This document shows, one piece after another, positions 18-25,204 of a stretch of 55,425 nt of DNA. A program made the position numbers and the translations under genes. The stretch lies in the IMG/VR virus record IMGVR_UViG_3300047089_000323, positions 1-55,425 of that record. The stretch is one strand, 5' to 3'. A model generated the notes under the pieces. It worked only from the letters and a program-made list of their open reading frames with translations, had not been told where the DNA came from and did not search any database. Positions within the stretch are counted from its first letter, which is position 1. Each line of letters begins with the position of its first letter. The DNA comes from a virus (taxonomy: Duplodnaviria > Caudoviricetes).

Positions 18-130
18 TCGTTTTCCTCGCGCGCTCCGCCGCGAAAACGCGGAGACAACGTGGCTGCGCGCTCCGGAGGCAGACAATGACGTCGTTTTCA
101 TCGCGCGCTCCGCCGCGAAAACGCGGAGAC
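18..130. repeat. two copies of a 39-bp hairpin-forming direct repeat (18-56, 92-130), 74-bp period
   Basis: tcgttttc(c/a)tcgcgcgctccgccgcgaaaacgcggagac occurs twice with one mismatch; internal CTCCGC/GCGGAG stem. Confidence 0.8.
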
Positions 131-1301: not shown

Positions 1302-4300
1302 TCACTGCGGCACCTGCTCACGTTCGCGTGGATCATAAACCCGTTCACGCGCGTATTTGGCCCGTTCTGTCTTGTCGTGCTGTTGCTTGGCTTTCCATTC
1401 TTTCTCGGTTTTTGCCTGCATCCAGTTATCGAGATGGACTGGATCCTGGATGTCGACGCCTGGAGCGCGGAAGCCAAGTGCAGTTTCCACGGGGCTGATG
1501 CCCGAGGTCTCGGGCTGTCCTTTGATCATGCTCCGGGCGCCGATCGGTCCCAACCGGCTGAACAGATGCGCCGCGCGCTGTTGCAGCTGCTCGAGCGGAT
1601 TAGCGCCGCGCTTTGTGATGGGATCGCCGCGCCAGTCTTCGTTGTTAATTTGCTCAAGTGCTGTCGTCGGCAAGCCGCCGAGCTTGGCGTAGCCCTCGCG
1701 CAGCGGATGTGTGAGCCAGCCATACACGTCCTTTTGGAAGCCTGGCATCAAGGCATGCTCCTTGACCTGGCCCTTGCCGCCGAGACCTGGGACGGTGCCG
1801 CCGGTGCGCGGGGCGTACAAGTCGCGCCAGTCTTGCGGGGCTTCGCCGGCTCTGAGGTACTGGTAGATGCCTGATATGGTTGAAACCACGAACGGAAAGG
1901 CAATGGCATAGGAAATGCGTGGATCAAATTCCGGGTGCGCCATGCTGAACCGGTTCTCACGGTTCTTGAGCGACAACGCTCCTGCTTTGCCGGCGGCGTA
2001 GGTGCCACCGGCTATTTCGCGCATGGCGCCTATCGTCCATGAGAACGAACGCATGGAGACCATTGCGGCCTGCCGGAGGCTCTGGTTCATGAACAGATTG
2101 TCGTGAATCATCTCGCCGAAGCGATTGTCGGTGCTGTCGACGATCTTCTTGGCGGCGTCCACCGCCGCCCGTCGCCCCTCCGGGGTGCTGATATCGACAT
2201 GTGGATTGGCTTTTAACCAGGCCTCCATTTGACTATGGACGGCGCCGGCCTTGAGCGCCGGAATATATTTGTCAAACAGCGGAGCGCCAACGGTCTGCAG
2301 AGCTCGGGACGCCTGTTTGAAGGGATACATGACCTGTTTGCCGACCGTGTCGGCAAGCCCCCAATCCTGCTTGATATCGTCCCACGCTTGTTTCAATTCG
2401 TAATTGATCTTGTCACGCGACATGCTTTTGATGAACGATCCGCGTGACACGTTTTCGTCACCGGCACTGCCAAGAATGTCGTAGGCATGCCCACGACCGA
2501 TCGGCCGTGCGTTGGCTTCGGCCATGATCGATGCAATCGGATTTGTACTATTCGGATTGAGATAGTCCTGCTGAAACCGTTTGCCTTCAATGTAGATGAT
2601 GCGGGGGGCGCGCGGCGCCTTGGCGATGGATAGAGCGCCCTCCTTGAACTGGCCGGAGAAGATCTGATTAAGGCCTTTGGCCACATCCGAAATGATCGCC
2701 TCGTTGGCCATGGTGAAAAAGTGATACGCGTTCAGCCCGAGCTCCATCTGGGTCCAGGCGGCATTCGAATTGCGCAAGGCATTATAGATGGGTTTGTGCA
2801 ATCCGCCCCCCATGCCCTGGTTGTAGAATGTGTTGTACTTGTCGGCAAAATCCTCTGGCGCATAGGCCTCCAGGAATGGTCCTTTTGGCGGAGCGTTGAG
2901 CTTCTTCCAGCCGGGAGGCGGGCCGCCAACCTGTTGCGGCTCAGGGGAACCAGTGGCGCCGACGGATTTCCCCGACCTGAAGTATCCAATCACTCCGGTC
3001 TCGACGCCACGCTCGAGCGCATCATTAGCCGCGATGAAATTTGTCATCGACAGGCCATAGCGCGTCGCAATTTCTACCGGATTGTCAGTAAGAGGTTCGA
3101 GTCCCGCGTCTTTGGCGTCCTCGTAAGTCGCATAAGTTCGCTTCTTGGTGCTGCCGGCGCCGCCGCGCCCACGGCCAAAGCTATTGAAAAACTCTGCTGC
3201 CTGGGCCGGATTTTTGTACATGTGCGCCGCATAGTCAGCGACGAACTTCATCTGTGCCGTACGATCGAGCTTGCTAAACTCAGTTTTCCATAAATCCATC
3301 GCGGGCTTGTGGTCGTCAATCAGCCGCTGCTGCTCAGGTGTCGGCTTCCAGTCCGGGAAATGATCGCCCCCCTCGATCCTGTTCATCATAGCTGCCCTAT
3401 CTTCTGCGTTCATGGGCAGAACAGTTTGTTGATGGGGATTGAGCAAATCGATGGTCTGCTCGAATACCCGTTTGGCTTTGCCGTAGGACCCGCGAATGAT
3501 GTGTTCCGCCTCCCGGCCGTGTGGCCCAATGTCGGACCCGACCAGCAGCTTCATCGACCGCCACAAATTGCTCAAGTTCGAGCGTTTCTGCGGCGGCGCA
3601 TAGGCCATGCTGGTCGGGCCAGGAGGCGGCGTTCCTCCCGCTGCGGCTGCCGCTTGGCCGACCGTGGGGGGCTTCGGCGGCTGACCGGCGCCCTCCTCCG
3701 GTCCCTGCCGCGCTTCCGCTTGCCGCAATGGCGGGACTGGCTCATCCGGTGCTCTTCCGGCCGCTACCTTGGCGGCGCCTCTTTCCAGGATCGCCTGCTC
3801 GGCGCCAATAGGGAGAGGTGCGGTTTCGATCGGCCGGCCGGAGCGTCCACGCACGATCGCTTGCCGCCGAATTGCATCAGGCTCCGCGGCGATCTGGTTG
3901 GCGCGCGCAGCCATCTCGCGGATGCGCGCAGATCGTGGCGTCACGGCATTGAGCTTCGTTTCGATTGATTGCTTGACAACATCAGCCGCCTTGCGGGTCT
4001 TGTAGCGCCCGCCGACTGGTTGGTCGGTATCGTTGCGCACCAGGTAAAATTCGCCGTTCTTATGTTGGAAACTGCTGACCGTGATCGGTTTGCGTGCGGG
4101 TGGCTCCGGTGCGGCAGGTTCCGGTTCTCGCGCTTGCTGCTGTCGGGCTTGCTCTTTGGCTTTGAGTTGTTCGCCGACGGTGGGCTTGGCCGCGGGCCTT
4201 CCCGCAAGCAGGTCACCTTGCAAATGGGTGTCCCCGAAAATCCCCTCGTCCATTGGACGTTGCGGTGCCGAAGGCCGAAGCCGTTCGTCGGTGCGCCGTT

Positions 4301-18629: not shown

Positions 18630-19028
18630 CTAACCGACCGCGGGAAATGTCACGCCTCGCACAACAAAAAGCGACCCGTGCATAAGCGGGACGCGTGTGT
18701 CGGAGGCGTCGACCATCACGAGGTCGTAGAGATATGCCCCAGGCTTCAGACTGCCCTGGATGTCCTCCGGCGTGACGTTGAAGTGAATGACCCTCTGCAC
18801 GGAGTCGTCGATGATGATCCGGCTGTTGTCGGTAGTGAGAGAAAGCAGCGGCACGGCGTCATAGCGGTTGAGTTGGACATCCATCTCGAACTTCTGTCCG
18901 TCGAGCGTCCAGGTCTCGTCTGCGTCGGTTGGATCGCCAAACTGAAACGCGTCTTGCCATGTCCCATTATCGTCGATCCGCAGATCGACCCGCGCCGAGG
19001 TGACGCTGTGGGCGTCCTCCCATTTCAT
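18630..19028 (-). CDS. virion protein, BppU-N-like fibre attachment domain
   Basis: ATGA-coupled start MKWEDAH; ...GAYLYDLVMVD...VPLMHG pattern. Confidence 0.6.
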   Translation of the reverse strand: MKWEDAHSVTSARVDLRIDDNGTWQDAFQFGDPTDADETWTLDGQKFEMDVQLNRYDAVPLLSLTTDNSRIIIDDSVQRVIHFNVTPEDIQGSLKPGAYLYDLVMVDASDTRVPLMHGSLFVVRGVTFPAVG

Positions 19029-19672
19029 CGCAGCGTCCTCGGATTGAGGTTGAAGGTGCTCACCCCGCCGCGCTGGCCGGTGACGCGGAACTGCTGCGGA
19101 TACGCCCACGCTTGCGAGCCGATGGTGTTGGCGCGAGTGGCGGCAATTCTGGCCTTGGCGATCGCGTCACGGAATTTCGCCAGATGGAATTGAGCCAGCG
19201 CCTGGTTGGAATAACTCTGCCCCGGCTGCAGCATCATGCCGCCGAGCAGGCCATGCAAAATCCCGAGCCCGTGCGCCGGCAGTACCCATTCCGGGATATG
19301 CGGCGGAGAGCAGAGAAACGGATCGGTCACCGTCTTGACGATGGAGGCCGTCATCGGCTGGGTGTTGGTGTACGGATAGAGGAACTGCACCGTGCCGATC
19401 GTCGGCATCACCGCCGGCTGCGCCACGTTGTTCTGATCGATGACGCCGTTGAGCCGCAGAATGCGGCCGGTGACGGGAATAAGCTGGTAGGTCTGCGTGT
19501 CCGGCACCACCACGAAATCGATCGCCTCACGCCAGCAGTTCGAGCCGTCGAAGAACTCCTCCAGCGTGTCGAAGAGCTGGGCCCTGATGGCGGCGTCCGA
19601 TGCGCCGGTCAGCGACACCTGTACCTGTGCGATCACTTTGGCCCAATACCGGTCGCCGTCGTGCCTGCTCAT
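19025..19672 (-). CDS. head-tail adaptor / tail tubular protein A-like
   Basis: 215 aa; EFFDGSNCWRE...LMLQPGQSYSN pattern; position after the capsid gene. Confidence 0.65.
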   Translation of the reverse strand: MSRHDGDRYWAKVIAQVQVSLTGASDAAIRAQLFDTLEEFFDGSNCWREAIDFVVVPDTQTYQLIPVTGRILRLNGVIDQNNVAQPAVMPTIGTVQFLYPYTNTQPMTASIVKTVTDPFLCSPPHIPEWVLPAHGLGILHGLLGGMMLQPGQSYSNQALAQFHLAKFRDAIAKARIAATRANTIGSQAWAYPQQFRVTGQRGGVSTFNLNPRTLR

Positions 19673-20130
19673 TGTCCCTGACCTTGCTGGTCACGCCCAG
19701 GCCCGGAACCGCCGGCAAGCCCCGGCAGCGCGCGCCCGACCAGCCCGATCGAGAACAGGTTCAGGTAGCTGGTGGCGAGCTGGTTCATGACGTCTTCCTG
19801 ATCGCGCTCGAGCGCGTGCGCGCACAAGCCGTGCAGGATCGCCAGCCGGAACTGCGGCTCCATCTCCACATAGGTGTCGTCGACCGCGGTGAAGGCCTGG
19901 GTCTGTCCGTGCGCCGCCAGGTTGAACACGAACAGGTCGGCGCGCAGCCGGCGCGCTTCCAGCAGCGTGATGTTGAGCGCGGTCAGCAGCGACGGGTCGT
20001 CGTAGCGATAGGGCGGGATGATGTCCTGCAGCAGCGTGCGGGCGTCGGCGATGTAGTCCGCCACCGAGTTCAGCGTCGGCTGGTCCTTGTTACTGTAATT
20101 GCCGAAGTAACTGGCGCTGATAGCCATCAC
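19669..20130 (-). CDS. head-tail connector (adaptor) protein
   Basis: VADYIADARTLLQD...RYDDPSLLTALN...RRLRADLF resembles phage adaptor N-termini. Confidence 0.65.
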   Translation of the reverse strand: MMAISASYFGNYSNKDQPTLNSVADYIADARTLLQDIIPPYRYDDPSLLTALNITLLEARRLRADLFVFNLAAHGQTQAFTAVDDTYVEMEPQFRLAILHGLCAHALERDQEDVMNQLATSYLNLFSIGLVGRALPGLAGGSGPGRDQQGQGQ

Positions 20131-20171
20131 GCTCGCTCCGCCGGGTGCCGGCGAAAGCCTAATGGGGAAAT

Positions 20172-20187
20172 GTTAAGGAATGCTTAA
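20172..20187 (-). promoter_or_regulatory. CtrA box TTAA-N7-TTAAC
   Basis: TTAA GCATTCC TTAAC on the minus strand, identical to the box at 10097-10112. Confidence 0.7.
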
Positions 20188-20450
20188 GGGGTGTCTTCGA
20201 GCTTACGCAGTCGATCCTGCACGCCGACCATCCAACGGTGGATCGCCTGCAATTCGGTTAGGACGTCGGTCAGCGTGTGATCGACCCGCATGGCCAGGGA
20301 CGAGGACACCCGCATGTCGTCGTTCAATCGCTGCACGTCGCGTTGCAGGACGGTGATGCCTTTGGCAAGCACCGGAATGCCTTCCACCAAAGGAAGTATG
20401 GCGTCGAGCTTGCGATTGATGGCGTCGAGATCGACCGGGGTGTCAGGCAT
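20184..20450 (-). CDS. coiled-coil hypothetical protein
   Basis: 88 aa with heptad pattern; similar to 38072-38395. Confidence 0.7.
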   Translation of the reverse strand: MPDTPVDLDAINRKLDAILPLVEGIPVLAKGITVLQRDVQRLNDDMRVSSSLAMRVDHTLTDVLTELQAIHRWMVGVQDRLRKLEDTP

Positions 20451-21291
20451 GGGCGGTTCTCTTAGGTCGTCCGATTTGTTTTTTTGAGGAACGTAAAAAT
20501 CCGCAATAACGACAGCCCTGCCCCCGATACATTAGTCTTTGGACTGTGGGTGTTCCCGTATAATCGTGCTTCGAACAATACACCGTCACACGCCCATCCA
20601 CGGCTCCTGGCTTGCTAGGTGGTCCAATCTCCTGGCATTCCCAGCCAAGTTCTTTGGTTTTGGCGCGGATGTTTTCAGGCGTATTTTTACGACCACGCCG
20701 ATCCCAAATCTGATTTGTTATTTCACTCTGACGCTTTCCCGCTCCGGGTTTACTCCAACGCACCGTGCGTGCGGTTTCACCGTTGTCGATTCCTTTCATC
20801 TTTGCTGATTGCTCAGCGCGTTTCTCAGATGTCCATGCCTTACGCATGGAATTTACCCGCTCCGCTTTTTTTACTGGATCGGCCCAATTCGCCTTGGACC
20901 CTTCGGCGATACGCGCGATTTGTGCTGCACGTAGATCAGGGTTAGCGGCAAGATACTGTCTTACAGATACGGAATGCGCAGCACGCTCTTCTTTGGTTTT
21001 TCGCAGTCCTTTATTCGTATCGGCGCGAAGCCGAATATTGTAGCGAGGTTTGAGGAAATCTATCCAAAATTGTTCACGTGCTTCGAGAAGCTCCGGAGAG
21101 CACTCTTCAAGAATGCCAGACGTGAATCCTACGCCGTCGTATTTTGCCCACGCTTGCGAAAGCCGCAAGGAATGGTGGCGCTTCTTACGAAGGTGGGAAA
21201 AATGAACCCGCTGCCGCAGTTCGATCTTTTCTGAAGATCCAACATACAGTTTGCCACTGGGGCTTTTGATGAAATAGATGCCACACGTCAT
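20443..21291 (-). CDS. free-standing GIY-YIG homing endonuclease
   Basis: MTCGIYFIKSPSGKLYVGSS...R...H...E.E motifs, NUMOD3-like basic repeats, C-terminal CSKH...GQGCRYC zinc module. Confidence 0.9.
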   Translation of the reverse strand: MTCGIYFIKSPSGKLYVGSSEKIELRQRVHFSHLRKKRHHSLRLSQAWAKYDGVGFTSGILEECSPELLEAREQFWIDFLKPRYNIRLRADTNKGLRKTKEERAAHSVSVRQYLAANPDLRAAQIARIAEGSKANWADPVKKAERVNSMRKAWTSEKRAEQSAKMKGIDNGETARTVRWSKPGAGKRQSEITNQIWDRRGRKNTPENIRAKTKELGWECQEIGPPSKPGAVDGRVTVYCSKHDYTGTPTVQRLMYRGQGCRYCGFLRSSKKQIGRPKRTAHA

Positions 21292-21348
21292 ACTCGGGGT
21301 TCCTTACTTGGAGGCCCCGAGTATGTTACCTAGTGTTACTTATGTCAA
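21289..21348 (-). promoter_or_regulatory. promoter TTGACA-N17-CATACT overlapping an RBS-sequestering hairpin of the endonuclease gene
   Basis: -35 at 21343-21348, -10 at 21320-21325; 11-bp perfect inverted repeat 21289-21299/21315-21325 includes the ATG. Confidence 0.65.
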
Positions 21349-21370
21349 GTCTGGCTAACTTATTGAGTTC

Positions 21371-22964
21371 TCAGCCAGAAATCACTTGACTTTGGACGAG
21401 CGCGGTCCCGTCGACTACCTGGTATCCGTAGACTTGTACCGAATGTTATCTAGCCGGCTCTTTATCCGGCCTTCTGCAAATTTCTTTGCAGCGCAGACTA
21501 TATCTTCCTGCTTGCGCAGGCTCCGCGCTCGTGGGCCGTTCATCCGGTCTGGATTACTAGACCTAGTCGTTGAACCTTCTTCCTGTTCCCAGGAAGCTTG
21601 GCTGCTGATTACCCAATCCGAAATGTTTTCCAACCATCGCATCTGTCGTTACCAACTACGCTGTGGTCACTTCGGCTCTCAGGGCGTTCCAGCAATTCAC
21701 GGAGTTTAACGAGAGCCTTAATGTAGAGTTGTCGACCCTCGCAGGATTTGGCCGAATGTTAGTTCGGATCTGAGCGTCTCCAATTTTGAAATCTGACTGG
21801 CAAAAGTGATCCCGTGAGCATGGCCAGCGAAGATCGGCTGCTCGCCGGCCGCGAAGTTAGTCGAGTCCGACGTGTTCGAGGGCAGCAGGTTGCTGATATA
21901 CAAAGTGAACCTGTCCACCATTCCGAGCCTGCCATTGCGCAGCATCGATACCGAATCGCCGGACAAGTAAGCCTGCCGCAGTTCCGACTGCTTGAGCATG
22001 CGTCCCGCCCACGATGGCATGACGATCCAGCGTCCAACCTCTGGGATGTTGGTCTCATCGAGACACTGGCCCATGCGCAGGATCAGGTCGATCAGGTTGA
22101 CCTGTCCTGTCGTTGCGCCCTGCCCGACCACCGTGACCGGCGTGCCTTTGACGCCCAGGTTCAAGTTGGCCGAGATCGCACCGGCGGTCGCTCCTTTATT
22201 TGCGGCGTTGGCTTGGCCGACGATGCCGCCGAGCACGTCCTTGTCGACGGTGATCTTGAGCTGCTGGGCAGCATCATCACTCCACATGCTCAGGATGTTC
22301 AGATCAGACTGCACCTCCATGACGTCATCGAGGATCAGGCTGAAATACTTTCCGTTGCCGATAAACAACTCGACAGAACCGCCAGTTGGCCGGTCGAGTC
22401 CGAGAAGGCCATCGGCCTTGTAGTCACGGATCGTGATCGAAGGCTTCGTGCGAATTCGCACACGATCGCCCATGTTTTGGATTTCCAATTTCTTCGCCGA
22501 TAGGGCTCTTTATCCCTACCTTCCTGCAAGTTTCCTTGCAGATGAGACTATCTCATCACCCTTTGCGGGGCCGGGCGCTCGTGGGCGGCTTATCGTTTCC
22601 TCACCGCCTAGTCGTTGAACCTTCCATCGCCCTGGGGCTCTCGCCTTACATCGATGGCTTGGCTGCTGATTGTCTCCGCCACACTCGGTCAGAGGTCCCA
22701 GCAATTCACCCGGTTTAACGAAGGCTAATCCGTCAACCCTCGTAGTCGGTATTGCTGATCGCGCTGAGCACTGTCGAAGCGTAAAATTTCTCGATCAGTT
22801 TCGCTGACCAGATCTCCATTCAACACCGACTCACATCCCCAAGATCACCACTTGGCAGGGATGAACCCCGTCGTTTGGAGGTTGTTCGGCGTGCTGCCGA
22901 CCGGCGTGAGGACTGGTACTGATCCGGACGTTGCGCCCGGAAAACCTGCACTAGGGATAGGCAT
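21371..22964 (-). CDS. major capsid protein, spliced: join of 22964-22857, 22816-22736, 22485-21735, 21438-21371 (335 aa)
   Basis: Exons total 1008 nt and give one frame: ...GFIP|EIWSAKLIEKFY...DYEG|EIQNMGDRVRIR...QILRG L|QVYGYQVVD...; these are recognisable HK97/P22-type coat motifs; follows the scaffold gene; AGAGGGA SD. Confidence 0.9.
21439..21734 (-). ncRNA. group I intron (296 nt, no ORF), capsid intron 3
   Basis: 5' exon ends in U; IGS GCUCUCG pairs CGAGGGU; P GAAUUGCUGGAA, Q AAUCAGCAG, R GUUCAACGACUAG, S AAGAUAUAGUC; P3 CUCCG/CGGAG; GAAA-loop P9; ends in G. Confidence 0.92.
22486..22735 (-). ncRNA. group I intron (250 nt, no ORF), capsid intron 2
   Basis: Exon ACGAGGGU pairs IGS GCCUUCGU; P GAAUUGCUGGGA, Q AAUCAGCAG, R GUUCAACGACUAG, S GAGAUAGUC; P3 CCGGG/CCCGG; ends in G. 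Confidence 0.92.
22817..22856 (-). other. 40-nt core-less group I-like mini-intron, capsid intron 1
   Basis: GCCAAGUGGUGAUCUUGGGGAUGUGAGUCGGUGUUGAAUG sits between CCU and GAG; carries an in-frame stop and a frameshift; P1 and P10 pairings; terminal G. Confidence 0.75.
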
Positions 22965-23019
22965 TGGACGTAGTCCCTCTCGAGGGGGCATTCGTCCATG
23001 CAGGATCGACGCCCCCGGT

Positions 23020-24096
23020 CTAACGGTAGCGCCCCTCTCGCTGCGCCGCGAACATATCGGCTTCCAAGCGAGCCCATTCGGCCTCTCGGCCGACATAGGC
23101 GCCCTTCCGATGCTGCTCGTAGAGCTGCTTGACTTGGGCGCGCGAATAGATGGGTTTGTCGGGCGGCATCGAGGCATCGCCTCCGGTTGCCGGCCTGGCC
23201 CGTCCAGGGGCCGCCAACGAAGCCAGGGAGACCGCCGGCTCTCTAGGCGGCGCTGCCGGCTGAGAGTAGGGCGCTGGCTCGAGGTGGCCCGTGGCCTGCT
23301 CTTCATGCAGGAAACCACGAAAGAACGAGATGACTCTAGGGGCGTCGGCCGCTGAGATGGCCTCGTTCAGGAATGTTTGTCTAACACGTCCCGACAGAAC
23401 GTCAACTCCGAGCAGCCATTTGTGCCAGCGCGGGTCGCGGTCGATCTCGCGGTAGTTCGGGATCGCGAGTTCGACGCGCTGGTCGAGGCCGCGGCGGGCT
23501 TCGCGCGCCAGGCGTTCGCGCAGGTCGGCGTTCTGCTGTTCGATTTGCGCGACCGTCGGGGCGAGCGCGTCGGCGGCGGCGCGGCGGGTGAAGTCGACCA
23601 GGTCGGTGCCGTAGTTCTGCACGTCCTGCTCGGTGAGATAGGACTTCGGCGGCGGTGGCGGCTGGCGGGTCTGGGTGACGGTGCGCTGCACTTGCAGGAG
23701 CTCGTTGCCGAGCTGGGTCATCTGTTCCTGCATTTCGCCGATGGTCTTCTGCGAGGCGTCGTAGCGGCCCTTCATCGCCAGATAGCGATGCTCCCAGTTG
23801 GCGTCCTTCTCGGGCGGCGGCGGCGTCTGGTCCGCAGCCGCCGGCTGGGATGTCAGGGGCTGTGTGGTCGCCTCGACAGGCGCCGGCGGCTGCGGTGCTC
23901 GAGCCTCCGGGAGGATTGCCGGTGGAGGCTCTGGCGATGGCGGCGCCGGCGGCGGTTCTGCAGCTTGGCCGTCCGCGCCGTTTTTGGCATAGAGCGCATC
24001 GACCGCGGCGGCGCGTTTGCGCACCGCTTCCGGGATGGTATCGGGGTCGAACGGCAGTTTCGCCATTGGTTTTGCGTCGACGGTGATATCCGCCAT
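23020..24096 (-). CDS. capsid scaffolding protein
   Basis: 358 aa, Pro-rich N-terminus, WEHRYLAMKGRYD coiled coil, C-terminal AAQREGR; immediately upstream of the capsid gene. Confidence 0.8.
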   Translation of the reverse strand: MADITVDAKPMAKLPFDPDTIPEAVRKRAAAVDALYAKNGADGQAAEPPPAPPSPEPPPAILPEARAPQPPAPVEATTQPLTSQPAAADQTPPPPEKDANWEHRYLAMKGRYDASQKTIGEMQEQMTQLGNELLQVQRTVTQTRQPPPPPKSYLTEQDVQNYGTDLVDFTRRAAADALAPTVAQIEQQNADLRERLAREARRGLDQRVELAIPNYREIDRDPRWHKWLLGVDVLSGRVRQTFLNEAISAADAPRVISFFRGFLHEEQATGHLEPAPYSQPAAPPREPAVSLASLAAPGRARPATGGDASMPPDKPIYSRAQVKQLYEQHRKGAYVGREAEWARLEADMFAAQREGRYR

Positions 24097-24104
24097 GTCT
24101 CACC

Positions 24105-24317
24105 TCATGTTCGCGCGGCCTCGAGCGCCTGCAACAGCTTCATCGCCAACTGCGCGTGGCCCTGCGCCACCTGCAGGTTCTCGGTGGTCTGGATGAGGTT
24201 GGCGGTCATCTGGGCCGCATAGTCGGCAAACGCAGCAAAGAATTTGTCATAGGCCTGGGGCGAGGCGTTGCGCAGGAAGCGCGCCTGGTCGGTCAGATCC
24301 TTGGTGCTGGTGCTCAC
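24105..24317 (-). CDS. small helical head-module protein
   Basis: GTG start, GTGA coupling; ...LQVAQGHAQ motif typical of the small gene before scaffolds. Confidence 0.65.
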   Translation of the reverse strand: MSTSTKDLTDQARFLRNASPQAYDKFFAAFADYAAQMTANLIQTTENLQVAQGHAQLAMKLLQALEAART

Positions 24318-24598
24318 GCAGTATCGTCGGGTGGCGGCGGCCCCATGGGCGGAGGTCCTGCCGGCGGTGTCGAGCCGAGTGGCGGCCCGCCCATGGGCGG
24401 CGCGGCGGTTGGCGGCGCGACCGGCTGCGGGGCCGTGGGATAGCGGTTCATGGCGCGATCGAGCGGATCGCCGCCGGTGAGGTCCTCGCGCTCGCCGGGC
24501 GACGGGCGCTGCATGGTCGAGCCCTTGCCCTGGTGCTTGATCACGCGGCCGTGTTTGGAGAGCGGGGTGAGGTGCTTTTTGAAAACCATGAATTTCAC
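24314..24598 (-). CDS. small Pro-rich protein
   Basis: 94 aa in a chain of coupled ORFs. Confidence 0.6.
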   Translation of the reverse strand: MKFMVFKKHLTPLSKHGRVIKHQGKGSTMQRPSPGEREDLTGGDPLDRAMNRYPTAPQPVAPPTAAPPMGGPPLGSTPPAGPPPMGPPPPDDTA

Positions 24599-24798
24599 CC
24601 GAAGGGTTTGGGGCCGCCGTAGCCGATGCCGGCCCCGCGCACGCCCAGGTCGGGAGCGCTACCGAGTGGCGTGCCGCCCTTGCCGTATTCACGCGTCGAG
24701 ATCGGCTTGAGCCGCGGCGGCGCGAACACCGCCTTGGCGGGATCGAGCGGCTTGGGTGCGCGTGGCGGCCTGGGCGGCTGGGGAATGGTGCGGGCCAT
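24595..24798 (-). CDS. small basic protein (MARTIPQPPRPP...)
   Basis: TAATG coupling to 24798-24983. Confidence 0.55.
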   Translation of the reverse strand: MARTIPQPPRPPRAPKPLDPAKAVFAPPRLKPISTREYGKGGTPLGSAPDLGVRGAGIGYGGPKPFG

Positions 24799-24983
24799 TA
24801 TTGCGGACTCGTTCTGCCGGGCTTGGCCCGGTGTTGCGTGATGACGCGGGGCGGCAAATCCTTGGCCCCGAATTTGGTCTTGCGTGGTTGCGTTGCCGCC
24901 GGATGCTGGCGCTGCCACTTCCTGACCGGCGTGTCGGCCTTTGGCTTCGGCTGTTCCAGCTCGCGGTTGCGCGGCGCCATCAC
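24798..24983 (-). CDS. small basic protein
   Basis: 61 aa, coupled on both sides. Confidence 0.55.
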   Translation of the reverse strand: MMAPRNRELEQPKPKADTPVRKWQRQHPAATQPRKTKFGAKDLPPRVITQHRAKPGRTSPQ

Positions 24984-25204
24984 CGGGCGCCAGTTTGCCC
25001 GGCCGTGGCAGGCACAGCGGGAGAGAAGCCGAACATCTTGCCTTTTCCGCCCGCAGCGAATTTAGCCCCGGGCGCGGAGCTCTGATCCTTCCCGGTGTCG
25101 CCGGGCTTATCGGGGCCGGCCGCCTGGGGACCGAACATGTGACCCGATCCACCTTCGGCGAATTCCACGTTCTTCGAGGTTTCGAGCTTGGACTTCGGTG
25201 TCAT
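24980..25204 (-). CDS. small protein with two FAxGGxGxMFG repeats
   Basis: EFAEGGSGHMFG / KFAAGGKGKMFG; AGGAG SD. Confidence 0.7.
   Translation of the reverse strand: MTPKSKLETSKNVEFAEGGSGHMFGPQAAGPDKPGDTGKDQSSAPGAKFAAGGKGKMFGFSPAVPATAGQTGAR

Follow-up and report, generated by a model that had tools for sequence, protein, structure and literature searches.

Introduction

Self-splicing group I introns are well established in phage genes. Familiar cases are td, nrdB and sunY of T4, along with orf142 of Staphylococcus phage Twort, which has three introns. Here we analyse a stretch of 55,425 nucleotides from a virus of the Caudoviricetes (Duplodnaviria), IMG/VR virus record IMGVR_UViG_3300047089_000323, positions 1 to 55,425, which is called the window throughout. 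Its capsid gene is interrupted by a 40-nt insert in addition to two full group I introns. The insert shares with phage group I introns (RF00028) a guide with a U.G pair, the P10 pairing, a terminal G and a conserved site in an essential phage gene. Unlike them, it belongs to a family of inserts of 34–41 nt that are devoid of the P3-P9 core, the guanosine-binding site and an open reading frame (ORF), and that form an extra helix beside the P1 of another intron. Comparison of these sequences suggests that the 40 nt are probably a non-autonomous group I derivative, which would be excised by the core of the neighbouring intron.

Cooperation and interference between group I elements have precedents. 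The orf142 gene of Twort is reportedly a natural case of tandem group I introns with exon skipping. In engineered tandem pairs of the Tetrahymena group I intron, the two members cross-react over a short middle exon and the exon is skipped, according to the accessible part of PMC10136302. The capsid locus resembles such tandems in having two sets of group I splice sites one short exon apart, an arrangement in which one core can use elements of the other. In the tandems, however, both cores are complete and cross-reaction is a side product that loses an exon, whereas here one partner is core-less and cross-reaction would be the productive event. Split, trans-spliced group I introns, reportedly found in organelles and exemplified by one in a fern mitochondrial rRNA, also depend for catalysis on non-contiguous RNA pieces. 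Their halves rebuild a single core, while the mini-intron would draw on the core of another intron that is itself complete. Translational bypass, known from the 50-nt gap of T4 gene 60 and from mitochondrial byp elements, is similar in placing a short, stop-bearing gap in an essential phage gene, and the window even contains matched UGG codons. In contrast to bypass, the family as a whole has no consistent matched codons, and what it conserves are splice-site pairings instead of signals for take-off and landing.

Strongly degenerate group I introns occur in the small-subunit (SSU) rDNA of fungal nuclei. The accessible part of PMC3160393 describes examples of 56–81 nt from Phialophora (PaSSU), Porpidia and Arthonia with P1, P7, P10 and a pairing of the intron's central part with the 3' exon, and one of them was reported to self-splice. 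The comparison with these fungal rRNA elements had already been drawn in a first-pass annotation of the window and agrees with that source. The phage inserts are likewise drastically reduced and retain P1, P10 and a helix from intron to 3' exon. They differ from the fungal introns in being about half as long, in residing in mRNA, in having no P7 and in lying always upstream of a complete intron. Full-text literature searches yielded no account of a phage gene with a core-less mini-intron, and a term search of PMC11878797 gave nothing relevant to one. The introns of Cluster J mycobacteriophages measure 820 and 265 bp according to PMC3706429, and the idea of a 35-bp intron in them is wrong.

A 40-nt insert with group I splice-site pairings

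The sole capsid gene of the contig is split into four pieces, and gene callers cut it into fragments. From its start at 22964 (minus strand) it reads through 36 codons up to TTGFIP, with CCU at 22859-22857 as the last codon. Relative to unbroken homologues, GFIP is then separated from EIWS by the insert, whose sequence has a single match in the window (22817-22856, minus strand) and a match in none of 100 shuffles. Exon 2 resumes as EIWSAKLIEKFY... in a different frame after the 40 nt, a length of 3n+1. Coming from upstream, the frame runs through ...TTGFIP and AKW into a stop. TGA is present in all three frames of the insert, so that no frameshift provides a route through it. The break of GFIP|EIWS, with its frameshift and stop, had been described in the first-pass annotation, and coordinates and sequence proved exact.

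The insert is present in the DNA. Logan contigs from three of four soil runs (X1, X2 and X3) bridge it unchanged, with zero differences and no joint. In the fourth run (X5) the contig begins 5 nt before the insert and does not bridge it. The identical insert is also found in another IMG/VR contig, 5 kb in length (L003/L083). Among isolates, the nearest are Rhizobium phages, which are insert-free: RHph_TM3_14A reads AAGFIPEIWSGKLIEKFY unbroken (GFIPEIWS). The motif F[IV]PEIWS is unbroken in 73 of the 80 closest IMG/VR loci, and E-I is invariant in all 73 of these uninterrupted relatives (the clade set of the window) and in all 53 of the AT-rich clade set. The closest relative without interruption is P0003, a capsid protein of 335 aa from a Logan assembly, which is identical to exon 1 in its first 36 residues and shares about 90-91% identity with exon 3. 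It is encoded either by an intron-less allele or by a spliced transcript. A protein search with exon 3 returned no full-length protein identical to the capsid of the window.

The gene might simply be broken, either in a defective or decaying phage or through imprecise loss of an intron, and the window is indeed a metagenome contig, with an estimated completeness of 88% in its IMG/VR virus record. Against this stand the identical copies in three runs and in the additional IMG/VR contig, the other parts of the gene, which are intact and conserved, and nineteen diverged inserts that hold their pairings via compensatory changes. We regard a broken gene as very improbable.

The insert is preceded by U and ends in G. 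Within it, GGGGAUG pairs over 7 bp with the end of exon 1, CAUCCCU (22863-22857), and places a U.G pair at the junction. This corresponds to P1. The strand GAUCUU directly abuts the guide and pairs over 6 bp with the start of exon 2, GAGAUC (22816-22811), which corresponds to P10. Both helices had been proposed in the first-pass annotation and are present in the window. Together, the two strands form a contiguous 13-nt guide that spans the ligated junction, and 59 of 200000 shuffles of the insert give such a guide.

The catalytic core of group I introns (P3-P8, P4-P6 and the guanosine-binding site in P7) is absent. A 10-nt loop, the 13-nt guide, a 2-nt joiner, an 11-nt tether strand and a 4-nt tail make up the insert with no nucleotides left over, in line with the earlier statement that a P3-P9 core cannot fit. 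There is no room within 40 nt for an endonuclease ORF such as a homing intron carries, and the only matches in an Rfam scan of 19000-25000 are the two full introns. Insert and exon sequence together might still be a ribozyme of minimal size that splices itself and needs no neighbour. Such a claim exists for the 67-nt PaSSU intron of Phialophora, with which the phage inserts share the helix from intron to 3' exon. Across the phage inserts, though, P10, guide and tether leave only 6 nt and a loop of 4-10 nt, with no P7 or guanosine pocket. Autonomy also leaves unexplained the constant downstream intron and the way in which the tether follows it, both described below, and we consider it quite improbable.

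A 5-bp hairpin, CCAAG/CUUGG, spans 22856-22836 on the minus strand, with a 3' arm that shares bases with the strands of P10 and P1. None of the other 18 inserts contains this hairpin, which may be a folding switch or a mere competitor.

Two phage clades carry mini-inserts at this capsid site

Viral contigs and metagenome contigs were scanned with site patterns that fixed the exon ends and GGGGAU only and demanded no downstream intron; the resulting variant counts are lower bounds. At least 19 distinct inserts of 34–41 nt occupy the same capsid site. They occur in 20 sequence contexts from two phage clades, eight of them GC-rich (the window included) and twelve AT-rich. All inserts follow U and all 19 distinct ones end in G, which extends to the family what had been noted for the window. 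Their lengths fall into all three classes modulo 3 (6, 3 and 11 of 20), and every insert contains an in-frame stop within three codons.

The P10 strand adjoins the guide in every match in a capsid context, and none was discarded for want of P10. P10 comprises 5–6 bp in all 20 variants. The U.G pair at the junction is present in 16 of 16 aligned variants, in which the outermost P1 pair is CG (7), UA (5) or UG (4); in the same alignment the outermost P10 pair is AU (6), GC (6) or GU (2). A looser P1 pattern gave no capsid instance among the matches listed, and a pattern with the exon end ATTCCT matched nine stretches, none of them in a capsid gene. The scan of genome contigs yielded no true mini-insert among the matches listed. 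When the region of mini-insert plus intron from the AT-rich clade was compared with GenBank phages by blastn, it matched segments of intron cores only. Related capsid genes thus compared comprise intron-less alleles, full introns at the site and covarying mini-inserts, all three of the forms envisaged in the first-pass annotation.

The family bears on two translational explanations. In the first, translation would restart at the final ATG of the insert (MEIWS...), and residues 1-36 would either be missing or be produced as a peptide of their own. In the window, AAUG|GAG is in frame with exon 2 and the stop of the upstream frame lies 25 nt earlier. Among the 20 variants, however, ATG ends only four, while TTG ends five and the stop TAG three. 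In 17 of the 20, a micro-exon of 21–24 nt (7–8 codons) would have to be joined on both sides, and no clear Shine-Dalgarno sequence precedes the ATG of the window. Exon 1 differs from that of the mini-insert carrier L249 in 10 synonymous and 1 non-synonymous of 36 codons, and is, as judged from these differences, under purifying selection among carriers, which also argues against restart. We hold restart to be highly improbable.

The second explanation is ribosome hopping of the T4 gene 60 kind, with take-off at UGG and landing at UGG 40 nt further on to give ...GFIPAKWSAKL.... The two UGG codons of the window do lie at equal offsets, and within the loop of the hairpin CCAAG/CUUGG a UGA comes directly after the take-off codon. 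But hopping would put other residues in place of the invariant E-I, and the UGG/UGG match is found in the window only. Seven of the 20 variants have no matched pair, no pair is common to the family, and the commonest match, AUC/AUC in 9 of 20, would cost the product P and E. Hopping leaves the U.G/P10 guide, the covariation and the neighbouring intron unexplained and is scarcely plausible. As readings for the whole family, hopping, restart and a dead gene are all unlikely.

Two members of the family, L125 and L213, have identical exons 1 (0 of 36 codons differ) and agree in the first 17 nt of the insert, while their tails, exon 2 codons and neighbouring intron types are all different. This pattern points to a recombination break within the mini-insert. 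It suggests that tail, micro-exon and neighbouring intron move as one module.

A tether helix adjacent to P1 of the neighbouring intron

The 3' part of the insert forms a further helix with exon 2, which we call the tether. In the window, AGUCGGUGUUG pairs over 11 bp with CAAUACCGACU (22754-22744), and this partner directly adjoins the exon strand of the P1 of the neighbouring intron, ACGAGGGU (22743-22736). The minimum-energy fold of the window recovers the tether together with the adjacent P1 hairpin of the neighbour (z -2.84). Intron 2 of the window has no partner of the tether strand beside its P1.

Exon 2 is long in three contexts, the window, L245 and L249. Here the tether lies 55–63 nt beyond the Trp-Ser position that is paired in the other variants, against P1 of the neighbour (Table 1). 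Across these three variants the tether tracks the position of the neighbour. A helix of this length within 1 nt of P1 arises in 0, 2 and 1 of 3000 tail shuffles for the window, L245 and L249, respectively.

In the remaining 17 of 20 contexts exon 2 is a micro-exon of 21–24 nt, nearly all of which is paired, in P10, in the tether and in the P1 strand of the next intron. The short-exon tether joins 6–7 nt of the 3' part of the insert to exon 2 positions 7/8-13/14, over the Trp-Ser codons, and its hexamer compensates all six Ser codons (TCG, TCA, TCC, TCT, AGT and AGC). Single short-exon tethers of 6–9 bp are not significant by themselves, with shuffle fractions of 0.02–0.62 in 16 of 17 variants and 0.0015 for L213, so that we put weight only on covariation and on the long-exon variants.

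For covariation, 16 short-exon variants were aligned with a covariance model that contains P1 and the tether and not P10; a plain MAFFT alignment put the tether strand out of register and was replaced by this one. All 312 of 312 cells hold standard pairs, and in six pairs both partners change. At 0.255, vs 0.104 in shuffles, the covariation score was reached by none of 500. When the partners were slid by 1–3 columns as a control, pairing dropped to 29–55% of cells.

Between guide and tether there are 1–5 nt on the insert strand, and the tether is 0–2 nt away from the P1 strand of the neighbour or overlaps it by a few nucleotides. The tether, or a different pairing open to the tail, reaches into the exon strand of the neighbour's P1 in L126, L331 and L213.

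A group I-type intron is always close by

Full intron 1 of the window begins 81 nt downstream of the insert, as had been reported in the first-pass annotation; its core motifs were found, and its RF00028 score of 72.6 bits lies above the Rfam gathering score of 50 bits. A group I-type intron is located 21–81 nt downstream in 20 of 20 contexts. Sixteen of these neighbours have td-like core motifs, and four belong to another type, which we call family A. The gathering score is reached by the neighbours in L213, L245, L249 and L339, by a long match in L126 and by that of the window, while ORF-bearing neighbours mostly fall below it.

Relatives that carry no mini-insert have an intron in that stretch in 2 of 73 (clade set of the window) and 0 of 65 cases (AT-rich clade set). 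Loci with a full-length intron at the mini-insert site have none downstream, in 5 of 5 and 12 of 12 cases. Since the neighbours are of two types and lie at five or more positions, we conclude that the association arose, or was kept, several times.

Catalysis had been assigned in the first-pass annotation either to the neighbouring core in cis or to an excised intron in trans. The first of these gains comparative support from the family, the constant neighbour, the full introns with the same guide and the tether, and remains a reading of sequences. The second is less favoured, since the tether joins the pre-mRNA beside the unspliced neighbour. Excised intron RNA, or indeed any group I ribozyme in the infected cell, such as intron 2 or an intron of another gene, could act on the insert in trans, and the window does contain two sibling full introns. 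Mini-inserts coexist with two neighbour types, so that P1 recognition appears generic. P1 is known to dock by means of backbone contacts and the G.U wobble. Yet a tether to the exon beside the unspliced neighbour's P1, kept in three registers, would be purposeless for a free ribozyme, and a full intron lies within 81 nt in all contexts. We consider splicing in trans unlikely.

The capsid gene of L125 (3245-5760) has at least five interruptions: a mini-insert, followed by a 23-nt micro-exon, a compact intron of about 165 nt, an ORF-bearing intron and two more Rfam-positive introns. For L245, an Rfam alignment that starts inside the mini-insert paired unrelated bases and was not used.

Full-length introns at the same site share the guide

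Five of the 80 closest IMG/VR loci (L004, L011-13 and L015) contain an intron of 302, 686 or 687 nt exactly between CCU and GAA. In the AT-rich phage clade, where the capsid reads ..DKFIP|EIWSDEI.., an intron occupies the site in 12 of the 70 loci in which the site is visible. Two of these loci, L485 and L538, give its whole sequence of 592 nt, and ten further loci have the same last 60 nt.

These full-length introns open with a loop followed by (G/A)AUUUU-GGGGAUG, and their guide is the same as that of the mini-insert. In each case P10 fits the intron's own exon 2, as GAUUUU:GAAAUC and AAUUUU:GAAAUU in the full-length introns and as GAUCUU:GAGAUC in the window. P10 thus matches GAG in exon 2 of the mini-insert carriers and GAA in that of the full-length carriers. 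The full-length introns contain an ORF with a motif that, read from the sequence, we take to be LAGLIDADG-like. The tail of the mini-insert agrees by eye with the P9 region of the full-length intron of L004 in about 9 of 12 bases, a similarity too weak to count.

Removal of the folded insert by a protein system, an RNA endonuclease and a ligase of host or phage, would be a different route to the same mRNA. Nothing specific points to such a system. The conserved features are exactly the splice-site rules of group I introns (U.G, P10 and the terminal G) and are common to the full-length introns at the same site, and we find a protein system barely credible.

Family A, which includes the full-length introns at the site and the neighbours in L125, L126, L212 and L331, gave no match to RF00028 even at E values up to 10. 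For these introns the label group I-type therefore rests on the splice-site rules, on manually read helices and on motifs resembling P7 and J8-7. Examples of this Rfam-silent type are L004 2618-2919, L011 947-1632 and L125 about 3308-3470. They are probably a subgroup that the RF00028 model misses.

Proposed mechanism of excision

We propose that the insert is the remnant of a group I intron whose homing site is FIP|EIW, a conserved site in the capsid genes of phages. It would descend by deletion from a full-length intron at the same site, with the P3-P9 core lost as a whole. What remains would be the substrate side only, namely an internal guide to which exon 1 is bound by its end (P1) and exon 2 by its start (P10), and the terminal G. 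In a first step, the tether would set the P1/P10 helix of the mini-intron at the hinge where the P1 of the neighbour enters its core, and this helix would dock in place of the neighbour's own P1. The neighbouring ribozyme would then carry out both transesterifications on the mini-intron, guanosine attack and exon ligation, and would remove itself afterwards or in alternation. The product would read GFIPEIWS, with ...UUCAUCCCU joined to GAGAUCUGG at the spliced junction. In L126, L331 and L213, the overlap between tail and neighbouring P1 could delay the first step of the neighbour until the mini-intron is gone.

Several observations weigh against this mechanism. A search for RNA runs that contain the capsid stretch gave none, so that excision of the insert is something that we infer from sequence, and we know of no group I ribozyme that naturally processes a second intron. 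A foreign P1 would need to be taken up by the core of the neighbour, with whose own P1 it would compete. In the window, the CCAAG/CUUGG hairpin competes with P10 and P1 and replaces P1 in the minimum-energy fold. Two different intron types, of which one is Rfam-silent, are represented among the neighbours, and the linkage of mini-insert and neighbour could be mere co-conversion during homing. The six inner P1 pairs and the inner P10 pairs never vary; they were partly fixed by the search patterns and carry no information. The alignment used for covariation was itself fitted to P1 and the tether, and the tether of the window occupies a different position from that in the short-exon variants.

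Excision by the neighbouring core nevertheless remains the explanation that we consider probable for the 40 nt. The broader proposition is evenly balanced: that the family represents a natural system of one ribozyme and two introns, in which a substrate-only cassette of 34–41 nt docks by its helix at the hinge of the neighbour. As the cassette would work with at least two types of neighbouring intron, it could be viewed as an intron parasitising another intron at the RNA level. At the DNA level it probably hitch-hikes on the homing of the neighbour. With the FIP|EIW site taken, the full-length, LAGLIDADG-bearing intron that targets it may also find the capsid gene immune.

If the neighbouring core does excise the mini-intron, a natural group I ribozyme acts on a foreign splice-site helix, an activity seen hitherto mainly in engineered trans-acting constructs and an instance of parasitism between introns and of ribozyme modularity. 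Evolution would then also have a way for an intron to shed its entire core while the essential gene that carries it survives. In capsid genes of metagenomic phages, seeming frameshifts and stops could be real and functional. An excisable RNA cassette of 34–41 nt with a docking helix would furthermore be a tool for RNA engineering.

Organization of the capsid region

The positions of the capsid exons, introns and insert parts are compiled in Table 1. The borders of intron 1 were set by the reading frame of homologues and by the rule of a preceding U and a terminal G.

Table 1. Parts of the interrupted capsid gene in the window, and tether helices of the three long-exon variants
Feature	Position	Strand	Size	Description
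Capsid exon 1	22857..22964	(-)	36 codons	MPIP...TTGFIP; residues 1-36 of P0003
Putative core-less mini-intron	22817..22856	(-)	40 nt	covariance-model R1 match 22797-22868, 22.2 bits, E 0.011
Insert: loop L1	22856-22847	(-)		
Insert: P10 strand	22846-22841	(-)		GAUCUU
Insert: internal guide	22840-22834	(-)		GGGGAUG
Insert: joiner		(-)	2 nt	
Insert: tether strand	22831-22821	(-)		AGUCGGUGUUG
Insert: tail	22820-22817	(-)		AAU and terminal G
Capsid exon 2	22736..22816	(-)	81 nt	EIWSAKLIEKFYASTVLSAISNTDYEG
Full group I intron 1	22486..22735	(-)	250 nt	no ORF; Rfam RF00028, 72.6 bits, E 1.6e-17
Capsid exon 3	21735..22485	(-)		Pfam PF25209 Phage_capsid_4, E 1.8e-7; ~90% identity to P0003 residues 63-314
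Full group I intron 2	21439..21734	(-)	296 nt	sibling of intron 1; Rfam RF00028, 72.5 bits
Capsid exon 4	21371..21438	(-)		..LQVYGYQVVDGTALVQSQVISG and stop; residues 312-335 of P0003
Tether, window	exon 2 nt 63-73		11 bp	P1 from nt 74; neighbour after NTDYEG
Tether, L245	exon 2 nt 59-68		10 bp	P1 from nt 69; neighbour after NTDY
Tether, L249	exon 2 nt 55-65		11 bp	P1 from nt 65; neighbour after NTD

Introns 1 and 2 are both free of an ORF. A free-standing GIY-YIG endonuclease gene (20443-21291, minus strand; Pfam PF01541, E 2.4e-8) begins 80 nt past the capsid stop, and it may be the mobiliser of the intron-laden capsid region.

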